The notes below the pieces were generated by a model that saw only the letters and a list, made by a program, of their open reading frames with translations, was not told where the DNA came from and did no database searches. Shown piece by piece: positions 5,998 through 59,193 of a stretch of 64,000 nucleotides of DNA; the first letter of the stretch is position 1; every line of letters begins with the position of its first letter. Both the position numbers and the translations under genes were made by a program. Source of the DNA: Puia sp. (lineage in GTDB: Bacteria; Bacteroidota; Bacteroidia; Chitinophagales; Chitinophagaceae); assembly GCA_035545935.1 (NCBI GenBank), contig DASZXP010000227.1, forward strand, positions 655 through 64,654. Reading direction: 5' to 3'.

Positions 5998-7635
5998 ATG
6001 GCAAAACAACTTTTCTTCGATATCGAAGCCCGCAACAGAATGAAGAAGGGCGTTGATACCCTGGCAAATGCTGTTAAGGTTACATTAGGTCCCAAAGGAC
6101 GTAACGTAGTATTGGAAAAGAAATTCGGCGCTCCTTCCGTAACGAAGGACGGCGTCACTGTAGCAAAAGAAATAGAGCTGGAAGATCCCATCGAGAACAT
6201 GGGCGCCCAGATGGTGAAGGAAGTCGCTTCCAAGACGGCCGACATCGCCGGTGACGGTACTACTACCGCTACCGTGCTGGCACAAGCCATCATCAGCGAA
6301 GGGCTGAAGAACGTAGCGGCAGGCGCCAATCCCATGGACCTGAAGCGCGGCATCGACAAGGCTGTCGAAAAAGTAGTGGCTAACCTCAGCAGCCAGTCCC
6401 AGACCATCGGCAACGACAAGAACAAGATCGAGCAGGTAGCATCCATCTCCGCCAACAACGACAACGCCATCGGCAAGCTCATCGCACAGGCTTTTGGCAA
6501 GGTAGGCAAGGAAGGCGTTATCACCGTCGAAGAAGCAAAAGGCACCGACACTACCGTTGACGTAGTAGAAGGTATGCAATTCGACAGAGGATATCTCTCC
6601 GCCTATTTCGTTACCAACAGCGAAAAGATGGAAGCCGAGCTGCAGAATCCCTATATTCTTATCTATGACAAAAAGATCTCCGCTATGAAGGACATCCTTC
6701 ATATCCTGGAGAAAGTAGCGCAGAGCGGCCGTCCGCTGCTCATCATCGCGGAAGACCTCGAAGGCGAAGCGCTGGCTACCCTGGTAGTAAACAAGCTGCG
6801 CGGTACGATCAAGGTGGCTGCTGTAAAGGCTCCCGGCTTTGGCGATCGTCGCAAGGAAATGCTCCAGGACATCGCTATCCTCACAAAGGGCATCGTTATC
6901 AGCGAAGAACAGGGTTACAAGCTGGAAGGCGCCGACCTGAACTATCTGGGATCCGCTGCCAGCGTCACCATCGATAAGGACAACACTACCATCGTAGGCG
7001 GCAAGGGCAAAAAGGATGACATCGTTGCACGTGTCAACCAGATCAAAGCTCAGATCGAGACCACTACTTCCGACTACGATAAGGAAAAATTACAGGAACG
7101 TCTGGCTAAGCTCAGCGGCGGTGTAGCTGTACTGTATGTAGGTGCTGCCACCGAAGTAGAGATGAAGGAAAAGAAGGACCGCGTAGACGACGCCCTGCAT
7201 GCCACCCGCGCAGCAGTAGAAGAAGGTATCGTACCCGGCGGTGGTGTAGCATACATCCGCGCCATCGAATCCCTGGAAAAGCTGAAAGGCGCCAACGAAG
7301 ACGAGACCACCGGTATCGCTATCGTAAAACGCGCTATCGAAGAGCCTCTGCGCCAGATCGTGGTGAACAGCGGCATCGAAGGCAGCATCGTGGTACAGAA
7401 AGTAAAGGAAGGTAAAGCCGACTTTGGCTTCAATGCCCGCACCGAAGTATACGAAAATCTTCTGAAGGCCGGTGTCATCGACCCCACCAAGGTAACCCGC
7501 ATCGCGCTGGAAAATGCAGCTTCTATCGCAGGCATGGTATTGACCACTGAATGTGTCATCGCCGACAAGCCTAAGAAAGAAGAAGGTCATGCTCATCCGG
7601 GCGGCGCTCCTGGTATGGGTGGAATGGACTATTAG
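5998..7635 (+). CDS. groEL: Chaperonin GroEL
   Basis: [29 protein letters not shown] and a GGM tail. Confidence 0.99.
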
Positions 7636-18218: not shown

Positions 18219-19559
18219 ATGCTCCGTCGATTCTACAAATCTCTTTTTATCTCCCGTCGCTGGTACTGGCTGTTCGTGTCGGTGATCCTTCTTTTTATAC
18301 TGTCCTTCGGTATCAGTCTTCTTTTTATGGTAGCGCAGCTGCTGCTGCTCTTTGTCGTGGTGACAAGCCTGTTGGATTACCTGATCCTCTTCACACGCAA
18401 GGAGCCGGTATCGGTCCAGCGGGAATTGTCCGACCGGTTCAGCAACGGAGATCAAAACCTCGTGAAACTGGTGGTGACCAATCAGTACCCTTTCCGCATC
18501 CGCTACCGGATCATCGATGAGCTACCCGATCAGTTCCAACGCAGGGACTTTCATTTGGATGGCGAGCTCAGACCGGGTGAGACGAAAGAGCTGTTCTATG
18601 AGCTGCGGCCGACACAACGCGGGGAATACCTTTTTCATGACATCAATGTATTTATCAAGAGTCCTTTTAACCTGGTGGTCCGGCGCAAGATACTGCCGTC
18701 GGAAAGGATGGTAAAGGTCCTGCCTTCCTACTTTGCCCTACGGCATTTCGAGCTGCTGGCGGCATCGAACAACCTGGCGGAGAGCGGCAGTAAAAGGATA
18801 CGCAGACAGGGACAAAGTCTGGAATTCGAACAGATAAAGGAATACGTGACAGGAGACGATATACGCAATATCAACTGGAAGGCGACAGCTCGCAAAGGCG
18901 GCCAGCTCATGGTGAATAATTACACGGATGAGAAAAGCCAGCAGATCTATTGTGTCGTCGACAAGGGGCGCGTCATGAAAATGCCCTTTGACGGCATGAG
19001 TCTTTTGGATTATGCCATCAATGCCACGCTGATCCTCTCACGGGTGGCGCTTATCAAGCAGGACAAGGCCGGGATAGTGACCTTCGGAGATCAGATAGGC
19101 ACTTTTCTTCCCGCCAGCCGCAGGGCGATGCAGATGACCAGTATCCTGGAGATACTATATAACCAGCAGACCCGGTTCCAGGAGACGGATTATGAAAAGC
19201 TGCATGCGCTGGTCCGTACCCGTATCACCCAGCGAAGCCTTATCGTGCTGTTCACAAACTTCGAATCCCTCTCCGGTCTGAGAAGAGAGCTGCCTTCCAT
19301 CCGCGCCATCGCCAGGAATCACCTGCTGCTGGTGGTGTTCTTTGAAAATACAGGCTTGCAGCAGATACGGACCGCCGGCCCTGAAGACATTGAAGGACTT
19401 TACATAAAGACCATCGCTGAAAAATTCGCGTATGAAAAAAGGCTCATTGTAAAAGAGCTGAATCAACATGGTATTTTGACCATCCTTACCGCGCCGGAGA
19501 ACCTCACCGTGCAGACGGTGAACAAATACCTGGAAATAAAGGCCCGGCAGGCCATCTGA
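18219..19559 (+). CDS. DUF58 domain protein (MoxR-associated, vWA-like)
   Basis: EFEQIKEYVTGDDIRNINWKATAR and VVDKGRVM motifs; N-terminal TM segments. Confidence 0.92.
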   Translation: MLRRFYKSLFISRRWYWLFVSVILLFILSFGISLLFMVAQLLLLFVVVTSLLDYLILFTRKEPVSVQRELSDRFSNGDQNLVKLVVTNQYPFRIRYRIIDELPDQFQRRDFHLDGELRPGETKELFYELRPTQRGEYLFHDINVFIKSPFNLVVRRKILPSERMVKVLPSYFALRHFELLAASNNLAESGSKRIRRQGQSLEFEQIKEYVTGDDIRNINWKATARKGGQLMVNNYTDEKSQQIYCVVDKGRVMKMPFDGMSLLDYAINATLILSRVALIKQDKAGIVTFGDQIGTFLPASRRAMQMTSILEILYNQQTRFQETDYEKLHALVRTRITQRSLIVLFTNFESLSGLRRELPSIRAIARNHLLLVVFFENTGLQQIRTAGPEDIEGLYIKTIAEKFAYEKRLIVKELNQHGILTILTAPENLTVQTVNKYLEIKARQAI

Positions 19560-19577
19560 TCCCTACCGGGAGAGTTG

Positions 19578-19585
19578 TACCTTTG
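19578..19585 (+). promoter_or_regulatory. -7 element (TACCTTTG) 5 nt before the truB ATG
   Basis: Exact TAnnTTTG match. Confidence 0.65.
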
Positions 19586-19590
19586 CGCCG

Positions 19591-20298
19591 ATGCAACAGA
19601 ACCATACGGATAACAACCCTTTTGCGGAAGGACAGGCGCTTCTGATCGACAAGCCCCTGGACTGGACCTCTTTCGATGTAGTGCGGAAAATAAGAGGCAT
19701 GGTGAAGATAAAAAAGGTGGGTCATGCCGGCACGCTGGACCCTCTGGCCACGGGGCTGCTCATCGTCTGCACGGGAAAATATACAAAAAGGATCAACGAA
19801 TACATGGCCCAGGAGAAGGAGTATACCGGCAGCATTACCCTGGGCGCCACCACTCCTACATTCGACCTGGAGAGCGAGCCGGAGAACTTTTCAGACCATT
19901 CTTTTATCACCATGGAATTATTGCAACAGGCCGTAAGCCAGCTCACCGGTCCCATCAAGCAGGTGCCACCCATCCATTCCGCCATCAAAAAGGATGGACA
20001 GCGGGTATATGAGCTGGCCAGGAAGGGTAGGGAAGTAAAGCTGGACCCGCGTCCCGTGACGATCCATGTCTTCGAGATCACGGATGTTAGTTTGCCCGTG
20101 GTAAGGTTCCGGGTGGTATGTTCAACGGGTACCTATATTCGCAGTCTCGCCAATGACCTGGGAGCCATCCTGGGCTGCGGAGGATATCTCAGCAGTCTCC
20201 GCCGGACACGTATAGGAAATTTCCCGATCGAAGAGGCGATGACGATGGAGGAGGCAGGAAAATATATAAAGGACAGCCTCCTCAGAATGGATAATTGA
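19591..20298 (+). CDS. truB: tRNA pseudouridine(55) synthase
   Basis: IDKPLDWTSFDVV, KVGHAGTLDPLATG and CSTGTYIRSLA motifs. Confidence 0.97.
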   Translation: MQQNHTDNNPFAEGQALLIDKPLDWTSFDVVRKIRGMVKIKKVGHAGTLDPLATGLLIVCTGKYTKRINEYMAQEKEYTGSITLGATTPTFDLESEPENFSDHSFITMELLQQAVSQLTGPIKQVPPIHSAIKKDGQRVYELARKGREVKLDPRPVTIHVFEITDVSLPVVRFRVVCSTGTYIRSLANDLGAILGCGGYLSSLRRTRIGNFPIEEAMTMEEAGKYIKDSLLRMDN

Positions 20299-22639
20299 TG
20301 CCCAGCTGGAACTGACCGTCACCAAGCCGCATTTTGTAGAACCACTTGTCCGCATTTTCCAGACGCTGGGGGTCTCTCAGCTTGTACGCCCAGTCAAATC
20401 GGATAAGGAAATAGTCGAAATCCAGCCGTAAGCCGGTACCGGCATCCACGGCAAATTCCTTATAAAATCTGTTGAGCTGGAAATCGCTGCCCATATCCCG
20501 TTTGGGATTGGCCGTATCCGTGAGCTGACGGTTCCAAATATTACCCGCATCCGCGAACAGGGCGCTTTTTATCTTGACGGTAAATAGGGTCGCCAGCGGG
20601 AATCTGTATTCGATGTTGCCCTCCAGCTGGATATCGCCAAACCTGTCCAATTGCTTGGGTTGTGTTGTATAAAAAGTGGAGGAACCCAATCCCAGCTGCC
20701 GGATCTGCCAGCCCCGCATACTATTGGGGCCGCCGGCAAAGAATGCCTTATAAAAAGGCAGCGTCTCCTCATAGCCCTGACCGGCCCTGCCATAGGCGAT
20801 GCCTCCTCCCGCATAGGCGCGCATGGCCAGCTCCGTACGTTTGAAGTCGATGTGATGACTGTACTCTACCTCGCCTTTTACAAAGCGCCAGAGATCCCCT
20901 TTATCCAGCGCCGATATGGTCCCCAGCAAGGCGCCGCTCTCTTCCGCACTGATGCGGAGGAAATTAGTATGGATGCCTTTTTTCCTGACGGAACTGTAGA
21001 CGAACTGCATCCCTACTACCAGCCCGCTGCGGAAGGCCAGGTTCAGCGAGGGGAAGCTGTCCAGCAGCTTTTGAAAGCTGTCTGTCTTGAACAGCTTGGT
21101 ATATTCGACATTGATCAGATTGAAGAGATAGGAGCGATTGCCTTTTGTCCACTGATACCCCCAGGAGGTATTGATGGATTGGGCGGTAAAGAACTGTCTT
21201 CTGTCCGTATAGGAGGCGTTCACATTAAGCACGGAGCGAAGGCTGTCCAGCCGTCCTTCCCTGCGGACCAGCCACCGTTTGATGAACTCGGGCGCGATCA
21301 GCCGGGGAACGGAAATAGTATGGGCGATGCTGGCCTGGGTGGTCTGTATAAAGTCATCTCCCAACTCTACCCCTGCCCGCAGATTGGTAGTGGAAAGTAC
21401 AGACTGGCGAAAGGTATTCCGGTTCTGCAGGGCGAAGTTGACGCCAACCCCGAAAAGATTGCCCACCGTTATGATATCGGCCGTGTTGCGGCTGGCTTCT
21501 ACGCCTACCTGCAGATGTTGTTTCTTGTTGGGATAAAGACGCACGGCGGCATCCAATAAGGAATCCGATGTGCCGGAAGGAGTAAAGCTGATGGCTGCCT
21601 GCTGCCAGGCGCTCATCTGGCTGAATCGGTTGAAGGTCCTGTCGGCATTGGACTGCCGGTACAGACGTCCCGGACGCAGATATACATTGTTGGCGATAAA
21701 GGAGGGCTTGAACTTGTCCGAACGGGAAATAATGGTAAGTCCCCTGGCCGTGGTAGTATCGGCGCCGTTGATCGTGGCCGTATCCTCCAGCATCTGCAGG
21801 TCGGGATATACCGTCACATTCCCGATGTAATATGGACGGAGGTGACCGGAATCCTTGGGGGGACGCTGTTCCATGACGACATTGATCGTAGGGTTCTCTC
21901 TTTTTTTCTGAAGCTTTTCCAGGAGGGCGGCCTGTTCGAAGGGGTCCAGGGTCGGATCGATGAGGGCGGCTGCCACCGTATCGATGACGGCAACAATGTC
22001 ATCCTTGGTGAATTCGTAATAACCGTTCTCATGAAAGAGGGTGACCAGCCTGTCCCGCTCGTCCGAGATAAGCCTGTTCGAATACGGCTGCCCTTTTTTG
22101 AGGAAGGACTGTCCTTTTGTTTGCAGGGCCAGCGCCTGCAGGGCCGGCGTATGCAGGTCGAAGCCTACGGAGTCCAGCCGCAGCTGTTTGCCTGGCCATA
22201 CCGTGAAATCGACCGTCACCCGATATTGGTCCTTGATGTGGTTCTTTTTACGGATGGTATCGATGCGGACCGTATCCTTTATCACCGGCGTATAATAACC
22301 CGAAGCGTTCAGCAGGATGACCATGAAGTTGATGCTGCGCCGCATATTGTTCGAATCATAGGCCGGGGGATTGACGATCCTGGTATAAACGCCGGCTATG
22401 GAGGTTTCCTGCGTACGCAGGCTGTCGTCCAGCTGATTCGCCAGGCGTAACGCCAGGTCTTTTTTTTCGCCATGGGAGATATTCCCTTCTACTTTTATAT
22501 TTGTATGAAAAACGAAGGGCTTTCCATACTGGTAGCCCGAGACATGATGGAATCCGGAACAGGACCACAGAAAAAGAGAAGCCGCCGAAGCAATCAATAG
22601 GTGAAGGAGAGAAATACTAACTTGCCGGCGGTATCCCAT
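20282..22639 (-). CDS. Omp85/BamA-TamA family outer-membrane protein with lipobox (TamL-like)
   Basis: FLWSC lipobox, POTRA-like N-terminus, FFAGGPNSMRGW, G.RLDFDYFLIRFD and a terminal GINYPF. The track start at 22654 is TTG; ATG at 22639 preferred. Confidence 0.85.
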   Translation of the reverse strand: MGYRRQVSISLLHLLIASAASLFLWSCSGFHHVSGYQYGKPFVFHTNIKVEGNISHGEKKDLALRLANQLDDSLRTQETSIAGVYTRIVNPPAYDSNNMRRSINFMVILLNASGYYTPVIKDTVRIDTIRKKNHIKDQYRVTVDFTVWPGKQLRLDSVGFDLHTPALQALALQTKGQSFLKKGQPYSNRLISDERDRLVTLFHENGYYEFTKDDIVAVIDTVAAALIDPTLDPFEQAALLEKLQKKRENPTINVVMEQRPPKDSGHLRPYYIGNVTVYPDLQMLEDTATINGADTTTARGLTIISRSDKFKPSFIANNVYLRPGRLYRQSNADRTFNRFSQMSAWQQAAISFTPSGTSDSLLDAAVRLYPNKKQHLQVGVEASRNTADIITVGNLFGVGVNFALQNRNTFRQSVLSTTNLRAGVELGDDFIQTTQASIAHTISVPRLIAPEFIKRWLVRREGRLDSLRSVLNVNASYTDRRQFFTAQSINTSWGYQWTKGNRSYLFNLINVEYTKLFKTDSFQKLLDSFPSLNLAFRSGLVVGMQFVYSSVRKKGIHTNFLRISAEESGALLGTISALDKGDLWRFVKGEVEYSHHIDFKRTELAMRAYAGGGIAYGRAGQGYEETLPFYKAFFAGGPNSMRGWQIRQLGLGSSTFYTTQPKQLDRFGDIQLEGNIEYRFPLATLFTVKIKSALFADAGNIWNRQLTDTANPKRDMGSDFQLNRFYKEFAVDAGTGLRLDFDYFLIRFDWAYKLRDPQRLENADKWFYKMRLGDGQFQLGINYPF

Positions 22640-56390: not shown

Positions 56391-57128
56391 TTATTTCACG
56401 ATATCCAAAAGCTCCACTTCGAATATCAGGGTGGAGCCGGGAGTGATCAATGGACCGGCCTGCTGATCTCCATAAGCCAGGCTGGAAGGAATAAAGAGCT
56501 TCCATTTGCTGCCGACGGGCATCAGTTGCAGGGCTTCCGTCCAGCCGGGGATAACGCCGTTGACGGCCAGCTCGATGGGCTCACCTCTGTCGACGGAGCT
56601 GTCGAATACGCGACCGTCGATAAGCGTACCATGATAGTGCACCTTTACCTTATCGGTGGGGCCGGGCTTGGGACCCGTACCTTCCTTCATCACCGTGTAC
56701 TGAAGCCCGCTGGGCAAAGTGACAACGCCCGGCTTGTTCTTATTGGCGGCCAGGAATTCCTCTCCGATCTTCCGGTTGCCGGCAGACTTCTCCGACTTGG
56801 CCTTTTGCATAAAATTGACCATACAGCTATTGGCCTGTTGATCGTCCATCAAAAGCTTCCCATTATTCTTTACGTCATTGATGGCTTTTACCAGCAGGGC
56901 GGTATTGATATTGGTCAGGTTCGACTGTTTATAGAAATTGGCCACGCTGAGGCCGATGGCATAGCTCACGGAATCCAGCTCACTCTTGAGCGTGACGGTG
57001 GAAGACTTGGCAGCCGTAGCATGTGTAGCGCTGTGGGCCGCGGTAGCAGGTTTCTTCACCTGCGCCGTCAAAGACAATGCCGCGGAACAGGCGATCATGG
57101 ATACGATGAGATGCTTACTTACGATCAT
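56391..57128 (-). CDS. FKBP-type peptidyl-prolyl isomerase (Mip/FkpA-like)
   Basis: Start MIVSKHL; DSVSYAIG, LPSGLQY, VHYHGTLIDG.VFDSS and VIPGWTEAL motifs. Confidence 0.93.
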   Translation of the reverse strand: MIVSKHLIVSMIACSAALSLTAQVKKPATAAHSATHATAAKSSTVTLKSELDSVSYAIGLSVANFYKQSNLTNINTALLVKAINDVKNNGKLLMDDQQANSCMVNFMQKAKSEKSAGNRKIGEEFLAANKNKPGVVTLPSGLQYTVMKEGTGPKPGPTDKVKVHYHGTLIDGRVFDSSVDRGEPIELAVNGVIPGWTEALQLMPVGSKWKLFIPSSLAYGDQQAGPLITPGSTLIFEVELLDIVK

Positions 57129-57177: not shown

Positions 57178-57189
57178 TGTCCGGACATT
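57178..57189. repeat. TGTCCGGACATT palindromic module
   Basis: Identical 12-mer at 63717-63728; related to tails at 26919-26925 and 52687-52696. Confidence 0.55.
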
Positions 57190-57965
57190 TACCCCCCGGG
57201 GAACAACCGTGTTCTCAGCTCCCTGACCAGCTCCGCCTTCTCCTTATCGCCTGCCGCATCCAGCACATAGGCATAGGACACAAGCTCTCCGGATGAACCG
57301 ACCAGGGATCTCAACTTTTCCGTCAGCTGCGGCAGCTGCCGCCTGATCTTCCCGACCTTCTCCCGGTGGAACAAGGCCGCCAGCAGGGCCTCGCCAGGGT
57401 ATTTGGGTGTATAAGGCGCTCCCGAGACGATGGACAAAAGGTCCTTTTCCAGCGAAGTCACAGGGGATTCCACCACCCGGCCCAGCTCCCGCCCATGATC
57501 CAGGACGATAAAATCCGGTACCCGGAATATATCACGCCCTCGTTCCTCATGCCCCGGGCTTTGTTTATACTTATCCGCCGAGGCGGCCACCGTGATCAGC
57601 TGGACGGCGCCGGTGTCTATTCCGCAACAATCCAGTATCTTGAAAAAACGAGGTACTTCCCGCCGGCTGTCTCCGCACCAGGTACCCATAAATACCATTA
57701 TTTGCTTGCCGGCCAGCTCCGACCGGAGCCGGCTGACCGCGGCCGAATCTACCACGTAAGAATCATAGTTCTTATTGTACCATTCCCCAAAAGGGGCCTG
57801 TTCCAGCCTCTTACGGGAGGCTTTTCCCAATAATTGGACATTGCCTTTTGTATCGGTGATCTCTATGCCGGCAGAAGACGAGCTTTGAGGGGCAAGCGTA
57901 TGATGACAGGACAGGGTGGTCATGGCAAAGCATGACAGGGCTATATATGAAAATAAGCGCTTCAT
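57189..57965 (-). CDS. Thioredoxin-fold lipoprotein (WCGDS, CxxS type)
   Basis: Lipobox TTLSC, FMGTWCGDSRREVPRF and RVPDFI...ELGRVVE.P. Confidence 0.85.
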   Translation of the reverse strand: MKRLFSYIALSCFAMTTLSCHHTLAPQSSSSAGIEITDTKGNVQLLGKASRKRLEQAPFGEWYNKNYDSYVVDSAAVSRLRSELAGKQIMVFMGTWCGDSRREVPRFFKILDCCGIDTGAVQLITVAASADKYKQSPGHEERGRDIFRVPDFIVLDHGRELGRVVESPVTSLEKDLLSIVSGAPYTPKYPGEALLAALFHREKVGKIRRQLPQLTEKLRSLVGSSGELVSYAYVLDAAGDKEKAELVRELRTRLFPGG

Positions 57966-58018
57966 AATTAATGAGGTTTTAATGGTGATCCAATCAAATA
58001 AATAGGGGAGGGGAGACG

Positions 58019-58354
58019 TTAGCCCCGGGGAGGTTGAAAGATGGAAGTAGTGCTCCCGGCAGCGATCATGGATGTCCCGTGAGGTCTGCCCGATAGGAGC
58101 AGGCCGACAGGGTGGCCGGGAGAAGGAAGCGTAAAGGCCATAAAGACCTCATCAGGTCTGAACTTATAAGCGGAGTTTTCCGTGTTATGCTGTTTATCGC
58201 CGGTAGTGGCTTCCGCGGAAGATTTTTGACAGTCGCAGGTAACTTCCTGAATGGTAGACAACGGTGTGATCTGACAATGCTGATAATTCAAGACCCTGCT
58301 GTATTGGAATAACAGCCAGGATAAGAATAATAGTATAGAAAAGGTCTTTTTCAG
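58019..58354 (-). CDS. Small ORF ending IFQPPRG, candidate leader/arrest peptide (non-ATG start)
   Basis: The frame stays open 21 codons upstream of the track's 58291 start, adding LKKTFSILLFLSWLLFQYSRV. Contains C-x10-C-x-C. A CTG start at 58354 is assumed, 5 nt after TATATTAG. Confidence 0.55.
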   Translation of the reverse strand: MKKTFSILLFLSWLLFQYSRVLNYQHCQITPLSTIQEVTCDCQKSSAEATTGDKQHNTENSAYKFRPDEVFMAFTLPSPGHPVGLLLSGRPHGTSMIAAGSTTSIFQPPRG

Positions 58355-58443
58355 GTGTACTAATATAACATTACTTTACCAGTTTGTTGAATTATTTTTA
58401 GGGCGTAGCACAAACCATGAATTTGAAAAATAAAATATCCATT

Positions 58444-59193
58444 ATGAGGAAAATTATTGCTGTTGTATCGCTATCCTTTTGTTCCTTTCTGCTGGTCGGT
58501 ACGGTGAATGCGCAGGGCTTGCTTAAGAGCGCCAAGAGTGCATTGAACTCCGTAAAAGGAGGAAGCAGCGGATCGCTTAGCTCGGACGATATCGTAGCCG
58601 GCTTGAAGGAAGCCTTGTCCAGGGGAGCACAGAAGAGCGCGGACAAGCTTTCGGCCGTGGATGGCTTTTTTAAGGATGCTGCCGTAAAGATCCTGCTCCC
58701 TCCCGAAGCTGCCAAGGTAGAAAAGGCCTTGCGTAGCGCCGGATTTGGCAAACAGGTGGATGATGCCATCCTCAGTCTCAACCGTGCCGCCGAAGATGCC
58801 GCTAAATCCGCCGCACCCATCTTCCTGAATGCCATCAAAGGCATGAGCGTGCAGGATGGCGTGGGAATCCTGAAAGGACCGGATACGGCAGCCACTGCCT
58901 ATCTCCGGAAATCCACTACTTCGCCCCTAACGGCGGCTTTCCGGCCGGTGATCGACTCTTCCCTCCAAAAAACAGGCGCTACCAAATACTGGAAAGCAGT
59001 ATTCGAGACATACAACAAACTCCCCGTGACCGCATTGGGGGGACAGAAGGTAAACCCTGACCTGTCCTCATACGCCACCGGCAAAACCATCGACGGTGTC
59101 TTCTACTATGTGGCACAAGAAGAAAAAAATATTCGACAAAACCCTGCCGCCCAGGTCACCGACCTGCTGAAAAAGGTATTCGGCGGAAAATAA
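58444..59193 (+). CDS. DUF4197 family exported protein
   Basis: Signal peptide MRKIIAVV...VNA (alternative start 58417); AGLKEAL..G, KILLPPE, SLNRAAE.A and E.NIR.NP motifs. Confidence 0.88.
   Translation: MRKIIAVVSLSFCSFLLVGTVNAQGLLKSAKSALNSVKGGSSGSLSSDDIVAGLKEALSRGAQKSADKLSAVDGFFKDAAVKILLPPEAAKVEKALRSAGFGKQVDDAILSLNRAAEDAAKSAAPIFLNAIKGMSVQDGVGILKGPDTAATAYLRKSTTSPLTAAFRPVIDSSLQKTGATKYWKAVFETYNKLPVTALGGQKVNPDLSSYATGKTIDGVFYYVAQEEKNIRQNPAAQVTDLLKKVFGGK

Follow-up and report, generated by a model that had tools for sequence, protein, structure and literature searches.

Within a 64,000-nucleotide (nt) stretch of a Puia sp. genome (contig DASZXP010000227.1, positions 655 to 64,654 of the forward strand; hereinafter the window), a small open reading frame (ORF) lies between a divergent DUF4197 gene (58417..59193, plus strand) and the gene of a thioredoxin (Trx)-like lipoprotein with a WCGDS site (57965..57189, minus strand). 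The small ORF is a genuine, unannotated protein-coding gene and is tied obligately to the position before the Trx-like gene. By analogy with characterized systems, we interpret it with moderate confidence as a cis-acting nascent-chain sensor-leader of the CutF/CruR type, which would pause the ribosome at an FQPP motif.

Translation of window positions 58375..58019 (minus strand) yields SNVILVHLKKTFSILLFLSWLLFQYSRVLNYQHCQITPLSTIQEVTCDCQK...STTSIFQPPRG*, with the ORF interior reading ...LKKTFSILLFLSWLLFQYSRVLNYQHCQITPLSTIQEVTCDCQK...SIFQPPRG*, an exact match to the product given in a first-pass annotation of this DNA. The frame is delimited by an in-frame TAA upstream (58378-58376) and by its own TAA at 58021-58019. 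From the upstream TAA to a TTG at 58291 there is no in-frame ATG, GTG or TTG, and the window sequence confirms the earlier observation that the ORF has no ATG; its probable start is a CTG placed 5 nt past the box TATATTAG (58367-58360). The equivalent codon at locus L021 is a TTG, which is the start in NCBI's own call for protein P0003, and CTG itself is kept in genomes G023 and G022, in Flavitalea flava and in five more distant lineages. Across 30 loci, the start position carries ATG in 8, GTG in 6, TTG in 6, CTG in 9 and another codon in 1. All 15 Leu codons found there are YTG, compared with a background of 48% YTG in these genes (P about 2e-5), which is how a start codon would behave. Weak start codons are a trait of the whole family. 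CTG initiation as frequent as 9 of 30 loci is very unusual in bacteria; translation initiation in Bacteroidota does not rely on Shine-Dalgarno pairing. Because CTG, TTG and GTG starts are frequent, gene callers systematically truncate or miss members of the family, as the first-pass annotation had foreseen for this ORF: the public protein for this contig of 74,371 bp, P0002, is a truncated, 90-amino-acid (aa) version beginning at TTG.

A single-sequence search recovered 20 close homologues from Puia sp., metagenome-assembled genomes of Chitinophagaceae and F. flava, and profile searches retrieved 72 homologues from 1.8 billion representatives (50% clustering) and 97 homologue clusters from a set of 5.8 billion proteins. 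All of the homologues are labelled 'hypothetical' and none carries a Pfam domain. In pairwise codon alignments with three relatives, the ratio of non-synonymous to synonymous substitution rates (dN/dS) is 0.18-0.39 over the ORF and 0.08-0.23 within the membrane segment, indicative of purifying selection, and synonymous third-position changes are numerous, also inside the membrane segment. The frame is intact relative to the nearest relative, with a dN/dS of 0.24. The conservation is thus of the coding type, and it covers the pattern that the first-pass annotation had singled out: the transmembrane (TM) segment, the three cysteines and the FQPP end are all conserved. A spurious ORF was rejected, the number of homologues and the dN/dS values going far beyond chance. 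Members of the family are rare and come largely from Chitinophagaceae; the profile search detected it in 7 of 301 genomes of the order and 3 of 401 genomes of the phylum, both of which are undercounts, because a search with the neighbouring gene found many ORFs too diverged for the profile.

The products of the family share one architecture. The family N-terminus reads M/L/V-(K/R)(K/R) and continues into a hydrophobic helix that closes in QYG(K/R)xxSYxxC; a conserved QY(S/G)(R/K)..(N/S)Y motif ends the membrane helix. AlphaFold2, supplied with the family alignment, predicts this helix (residues 2-26) as the sole confident element, with block values of the predicted local distance difference test (pLDDT) of 92-97 for residues 1-20 and 81 for residues 21-30. 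Residues 30-111, about 80 in all, have pLDDT values of 54-68 (54-59 in the spacer) and are predicted to be almost without secondary structure. The only residues invariant family-wide are three cysteines and the two prolines P108 and P109, and D41, K44 and F106 are nearly so. The cysteines follow the pattern C-x12-C-x-C (C27, C40 and C42) instead of the C-x10-C-x-C originally described, with CDC(E/Q)K(Q) lying 12 residues past the first cysteine, and the distance from the first to the second cysteine is 12-14 positions in 73 of the 82 members in which both could be scored. The YQHC sequence is no lipobox, and a lipoprotein identity for the small ORF was rejected.

The cysteine cluster and the C-terminal end are joined by a polar spacer, which holds a semi-conserved K(F/E)(R/K)x(D/E)E.F block (also written K(E)KxEExF) followed by a variable stretch. 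Residues 81-100 show a dN/dS of about 1-1.7 against more diverged relatives and zero indels among four close relatives. CxC and PP stand 65-69 aa apart in 89 of 91 members (66 in 43, 67 in 23 and 68 in 15), and 65-71 aa apart in 19 loci found independently via the neighbouring gene. The length of the spacer is thus conserved while its sequence drifts neutrally. The family ending reads GFxxx(I/V)FQPPR, typically with one more residue before the stop, and the tail after PP is exactly two residues in 52 of 91 members. The codons of the two prolines differ among loci (CCN), and PP is therefore conserved at the protein level.

The genomic context of the small ORF is also conserved. It lies upstream of the Trx-like gene on the same strand in this genome and at loci L002, L003, L004, L016, L020, L021 and L083-L086, and in every locus with wide flanks (this genome, L004, L020 of F. 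flava, L021 and L083-L086) the small ORF is followed by the gene of the Trx-like lipoprotein and then by that of the FKBP-type isomerase. Of 41 relatives, this genome, G003, G022 and G023 have both the small ORF and the Trx-like gene and 36 others have neither; in G004 the small ORF is situated at a contig end. For a reverse test, 121 genomes of the bacterial family were searched with the lipoprotein and loci were chosen only for a long 'WCGDS(K/R)RE' ortholog. About 22 of the genomes contain a close, mostly long ortholog of this kind, and most others only a short paralog. At 19 of 21 ortholog loci, a same-strand ORF lies upstream that has a TM segment, a Cys, a CxC, the spacing given above, an (I)F(Q/H/R)PP motif and a tail of 1-13 aa, and many of these ORFs have diverged so far that the family profile misses them. 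One of the two exceptions is cut by a contig end and the other is apparently frameshifted in both genes; the latter (L104, genome G268) reflects either co-decay of the gene pair or sequencing error, both genes being intact in the congeneric G310 (L016). No PP-ended upstream ORF was found at the short-paralog loci of the 121-genome search. The class of the downstream gene, whose conservation the first-pass annotation had named as a check, is thus maintained, with the FKBP gene third in all wide-flank loci.

Taken together, a nascent-chain sensor is the most economical explanation because it accounts for the PP near the stop, the free spacer of fixed length, the unstructured product, the weak starts and the first-gene position before a variable gap. 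The combination of a length-conserved, sequence-free spacer with no predicted fold beyond the TM helix favours a leader-type role, and the weak start codons are consistent with a low-abundance regulatory product. The gaps between the small ORF and the lipoprotein gene range from 24 to 330 nt, often contain inverted repeats or hairpins, and resemble the spacers between leaders and the genes that they control.

In the mechanism that we propose, translation would begin at the weak CTG on a short-leader or leaderless mRNA, and the product would insert N-in/C-out through its single membrane helix. Elongation would pause once the ribosome reaches (I/V)FQPP, two codons from the stop. During the pause the 66-residue spacer would occupy the exit tunnel and the translocon, such that C27, C40 and C42 would have just emerged on the periplasmic face. 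Whether the cluster is oxidised, reduced or liganded, a condition possibly set by the Trx-like lipoprotein, would alter the pull on the chain and hence the dwell of the ribosome near the ORF end. Ribosome occupancy would in turn set expression of the Trx-like gene, and perhaps that of the FKBP gene, either by guarding against Rho-type polarity or by making the next start region accessible. We infer the pausing, the signal that is sensed, the sign of the regulation and the mechanism downstream of it. The gene neighbourhood suggests thiol-redox or folding state as the sensed signal; a metal, also considered in the first-pass annotation, is not specifically supported, since the genes nearby serve thiol redox and folding rather than metal handling.

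Two proteobacterial systems provide the closest mechanistic parallels. CruR (Bp2923) of Bordetella pertussis, a DUF2946 (PF11162) protein, controls its downstream gene in response to copper, as the first-pass annotation had recounted; the control acts via Rho-dependent termination, and mutation of either the RAPP or the CXXC motif ends it (PMC9426467). In both systems a small ORF is the first gene before an envelope gene, at a sizeable intergenic distance, and its poorly structured product has an N-terminal segment for export or anchoring and a Cys motif (essential in CruR, invariant here). The spacing between the Cys and Pro motifs is conserved in both families, with a value of ~66 aa (65-69) here as opposed to 45 in CruR. 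The small ORF nevertheless has no sequence or hidden Markov model (HMM) similarity to DUF2946 and does not match PF11162. It combines a CxC with a juxtamembrane Cys in place of the CXXC of CruR or the CxxxC of CutF, and its invariant PP stands two residues from the stop, in an (I/V)FQPPR context instead of RAPP or PPP. It precedes a Trx-like lipoprotein gene rather than one for a TonB-dependent transporter, in a different phylum, and its control of that gene is putative.

CutF of Rhodobacter capsulatus, likewise of DUF2946, carries a Sec signal and a CxxxC motif, senses periplasmic Cu while it is being exported co-translationally, and stalls at its C-terminal Pro-rich motif, thereby opening a stem-loop (PMC9973294; bioRxiv 10.1101/2025.02.05.636593). 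The proposed logic is alike, with a periplasm-exposed Cys motif sensed during export while the C-terminal prolines are in the ribosome. The helix of the small ORF, in contrast, looks like an uncleaved anchor and not a cleavable Sec signal, and the stem-loop over the next start in CutF has no counterpart in this window. A broad 'CutF-like' class has been delineated by filters, and the neighbours reported for it are metal-homeostasis genes, with thioredoxin and FKBP not mentioned (PMC9973294). The small ORF passes these filters: it has fewer than 150 aa (111), PP within the last 15 residues (108-109) and a targeting signal at its N-terminus, and the next gene on the same strand is less than 1 kb away (53 nt).

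Two uncharacterised families of Bacteroidota display the same overall design. DUF6660 (PF20365), present in 37 of 201 Bacteroidota genomes, ends ...SIWQPPK(I)(S)*, with 41-46 aa from the Cys cluster to PP and a tail of 2-4 residues. It shares with the small ORF (ending IFQPPRG*) the phylum, a C-terminal (I/V)(W/F)QPP(K/R) that leaves 1-2 residues before the stop, an N-terminal TM segment, a fixed Cys-to-PP distance and the first-gene position before envelope genes. DUF6660 is distinguished by PCxD and CSPFCxCxCC motifs, a His-rich segment and metal efflux pumps downstream; the small ORF contains neither motif and does not match the Pfam model. HYC_CC_PP (NF047658), present in 60 of the 201 genomes, has its PP 12-22 residues from the end and a spacer of 51-60 aa. 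The likeness here comprises a basic n-region, a TM segment, ..YxxC, a Cys-rich composition, a conserved PP near the end and an envelope gene downstream, which for HYC_CC_PP encodes a TonB-dependent receptor, whereas its CC...CC (and HYC) motifs and 12-22-residue tail are absent from the small ORF, which leaves the NCBIfam model unmatched. Profile-profile comparison by hhalign aligns the small-ORF family with DUF6660 over the last 25 columns only (probability 66%, E 5.5e-5) and with HYC_CC_PP over the first 47 columns only (probability 45%, E 2e-4), and homology to either family was not established beyond a single terminal module. When the ORF and 40 family members were scanned against Pfam and NCBIfam, only chance-level matches came up, with no other Pfam family at E <= 1. 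The small ORF lies outside DUF2946, DUF6660 and HYC_CC_PP while sharing an architecture common to all three. Its spacer is ~22 residues longer than that of DUF6660 or CruR, roughly a translocon-crossing length, which would place the cysteines just outside the membrane at the pause.

Both families also occur in this genome. On contig C231 (L117, 11503-17408), a DUF6660 gene ending AVWQPPRIG lies 78 nt before genes for a 1432-aa ACR_tran+OEP fusion pump and a CusB-like adaptor; further along (18858-21872), an HYC_CC_PP gene lies 43 nt ahead of an HMA-domain TonB-dependent receptor. By-eye inspection of ORF translations indicates that an arsenic-type cluster apparently adjoins L117. A scan of the genome for [FWYIL][QHR]PP[KR] near frame ends gave the small ORF and the DUF6660 gene as the only credible cases. 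The precedent named in the first-pass annotation, of QPP-ended Bacteroidota ORFs before metal or envelope genes, exists in DUF6660 (IWQPPK), which heads a CzcA-type metal pump here, and we count the PP-ended ORFs that head this pump and the HMA-TonB receptor in favour of a sensor. At L017 and L018 (family f19) and at L022 (another family of the same class), more distant small ORFs combine a TM segment and a Cys cluster with a PP end, which reads FFRPPQL, IFHPPCC or VFHPPTFIG. They are followed by Met-rich outer-membrane-type proteins without family match (L017 and L018) and by MbnP-like and MbnH-like copper-associated proteins (L022). Because of these ORFs, the PP-ended design spans several unnamed Bacteroidota families.

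Several observations weigh against a sensor-leader. The synteny is due in part to vertical inheritance inside one bacterial family. The described diprolyl arrest cores are RAPP-like (RAPP, RGPP, HAPP and QAPP), and FQPP and WQPP are not among them; the literature searched contains no report of a QPP-type arrest, and nothing relevant on DUF6660, HYC_CC_PP, FQPPR or WQPP. RNA structure in the stop-to-start region of this locus is not significant (z = 0.6), no Rfam family was found in its intergenic region, and no shared nucleotide motif follows PP across 32 loci, where T-rich 'TTTATTT(G)' strings recur without being universal. Within the gap, 29 nt ahead of the lipoprotein ATG (57965), the sequence TTTATTTG departs from the -7 box by one mismatch and could provide the Trx-like gene with its own promoter. 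Before the Trx-like gene, the -7 box (TAnnTTTG) has one-mismatch matches only, at a distance of ~30-60 nt, in 4 of 19 loci, and the scan neither establishes nor rules out an internal promoter.

The strongest competing explanation, which we judge a serious though less probable one, is that the ORF encodes a small, stable bitopic membrane protein that acts post-translationally with the monothiol Trx-like lipoprotein, as a thiol partner or resolving Cys, a substrate or a membrane tether; FQPPR would then be a protein-contact element or a recognition element for the FKBP prolyl isomerase instead of a ribosome pause signal. Strict co-occurrence and adjacency are likewise expected of the subunits of one system. 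The lipoprotein has a single active-site Cys (WCGDS), to which the small protein would bring three invariant cysteines on the periplasmic side, and the third gene encodes an FKBP prolyl isomerase. Conservation is strong at the end of the TM helix (dN/dS 0.08-0.23), and the conserved polar positions within the TM segment and just beyond it (QYG[KR]..SY..C), together with the monothiol partner, fit this explanation equally well, which counts against a sensor. On the other hand, ~80 of 111 residues are predicted to be unstructured, and a spacer of fixed length and free sequence is unneeded for a simple tether. The PP-near-stop end recurs in the unrelated DUF6660, HYC_CC_PP and DUF2946 without FKBP neighbours, mostly non-ATG starts, CTG included, point to low abundance, and the gene order is constant with the small gene always first.

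A further possibility, more doubtful, places the small ORF nearer to the monitoring-substrate arrest peptides SecM, MifM, VemP, ApdA/ApdP and the RQH family, which are encoded before Sec or YidC genes (PMC7897499, PMC10987492). The parallels are a membrane-targeted small ORF just upstream of the factor that it may report on and a C-terminal Pro-containing motif; those peptides use proven RAPP/RAGP-like or other arrest sequences, whereas the arrest is putative here and the neighbours are thiol-redox and folding genes. On this reading, the product would be a new Bacteroidota-specific 'FQPP' arrest peptide and would monitor, as a substrate, how much thiol-redox and folding capacity the envelope has. 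The 66-residue spacer would be a ruler across the ribosome tunnel and the translocon, and at the pause the Trx-like lipoprotein (and FKBP) would act on the cysteines in the periplasm; whether this reaction succeeds or fails would determine how long the pause lasts and so feed back on the expression of these genes. If so, no earlier nascent-chain sensor would respond to periplasmic redox or folding state, the known ones responding to metal or Sec/YidC activity, and (W/F)QPP, together with DUF6660, would represent an arrest motif distinct from RAPP.

It is very unlikely that the small ORF is decaying and without function in this genome, having lost its start (CTG) and, by a 1-nt insertion, the 9-residue tail of its clade. 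The start position is indeed neither ATG, GTG nor TTG, and an extra C produces GGC TAA where relatives have GGT AAC .... CTG, however, is also found in G023, G022, F. flava and five further distant lineages, an end two residues past PP is the family norm (52/91) and is shared by P0005, and the frame is intact with a dN/dS of 0.24 to the nearest relative. A pseudogene was accordingly rejected on the intact frame, the conserved CTG and the usual family ending. Least credible of all is that the conserved item is a long 5' leader RNA or the promoter region of the lipoprotein gene: among close relatives, blocks 5' of CTG and 3' of PPRG are conserved as nucleotides irrespective of frame, but this is contradicted by conservation of the coding type, in which changes follow codon positions with dN/dS well below 1 and the protein pattern survives at 20-30% identity while codons vary, and by the lack of an Rfam match or a significant fold.

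To our knowledge, proof that nascent chains couple an extracytoplasmic signal to ribosome pausing is limited to a few DUF2946 proteins of proteobacteria, which sense copper, and to the monitoring substrates of Sec and YidC. A cis-acting sensor-leader in Puia would, if true, extend the principle to Bacteroidota, which initiate without Shine-Dalgarno pairing, to another pause motif (FQPP) and to another output (a monothiol Trx-like lipoprotein and an FKBP foldase). The system is compact and directly testable, with 111 codons, three cysteines, one PP and a length-fixed spacer. An uncharacterised family of putative thioredoxin-fold lipoproteins is now linked to an obligate partner gene, and a conserved gene family is shown to be systematically mis-called or truncated.

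Table 1 Features of the small-ORF locus, in window coordinates.
Feature	Coordinates	Strand	Basis
Small ORF, 111 codons + stop	58019..58354	minus	Translation, homologues, alignments, dN/dS
Putative start codon CTG	58354-58352	minus	TTG in L021 at homologous position; ATG/GTG/TTG/CTG family-wide
Residues 2-26, basic n-region (KK) and one membrane helix	58277..58351	minus	AlphaFold2, alignment
Cys cluster C27-x12-C40-D-C42	58229..58276	minus	Three Cys invariant across family
Polar spacer, predicted disordered, residues 43-100	58055..58228	minus	Alignment, dN/dS, pLDDT
C-terminal module MIAAGSTTSIFQPPRG	58022..58054	minus	Pro-Pro codons 58033-58028, two codons ahead of stop
Putative thioredoxin-fold lipoprotein, monothiol WCGDSRRE site	57189..57965	minus	Weak Thioredoxin_9, PDB alignments, orthologs
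FKBP-type peptidyl-prolyl isomerase (FKBP_N + FKBP_C)	56391..57128	minus	Pfam, NCBIfam; third gene of trio
Candidate promoter TCAACA-17 nt-(TG)TATATT	58360..58390	minus	Consensus scan; includes Bacteroidota -7-like box TATATTAG
Intergenic region, 53 nt, C-rich/G-poor	57966..58018	minus	A13 C16 G4 T20

The lipoprotein matches Thioredoxin_9 weakly (21.1 bits, under the cut-off of 25). Thioredoxins in the PDB align their WCGPC with its WCGDS, in which Ser stands in for the second Cys, and its orthologs keep the cis-Pro VP and a family-specific YKQSPxHEE motif. At L021 (Sphingobacteriales bacterium 50-39), ~100 nt are apparently inserted in the signal-peptide coding part of the Trx-like gene (6389-6500), and the annotated product begins later (225 aa) and is without a signal. 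A short (~180-aa) Trx-like paralog, present in most Chitinophagaceae, is encoded elsewhere in this genome (C129:1251-1676), with no PP-ended ORF upstream. The FKBP protein passes the NCBIfam cut-off for BamJ (111.3 vs 100 bits) and scores higher on the FklB and FkpA models, yet under their cut-offs. BamJ is the FKBP-type isomerase subunit of the BAM complex of Bacteroidota (PMC12578637). The N-terminus of the FKBP protein (..VSMIAC) could be a lipobox.

Upstream of the small ORF, the consensus scan identified a sigma-70-like TCAACA-17-TGtTATATT match that ends 8 nt ahead of the CTG, suggesting a very short or absent mRNA leader. The upstream block TGGTAAAGTAATGTTATATTAG is identical in this genome, G023 and G022, at 57-81% protein identity, and near-identical in L021. 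On the other side, the stop lies 53 nt before the lipoprotein gene and is followed by a C-rich, G-poor tract, as the first-pass annotation had stated, and no intrinsic terminator was found in this gap. About 30 nt after PPRG (TAACGTCTYCYYTCCCYTATTTATTTGA, window 57995-58024) are conserved as nucleotides in the Puia-like clade (L002, L003 and L021), independently of frame. Most relatives read this DNA as a 9-aa tail, GNVFLPLFI*, and P0020 reads it in a third frame; in this genome, an extra C after PPR sets a TAA in frame within it. A -7-like promoter box and an RNA signal are possible identities for the block. At L003 (G022), the interval between the small-ORF stop and the lipoprotein start contains ~60 nt of extra sequence flanked by repeated CCT(T)ATTTATT, which suggests a small insertion with target duplication.

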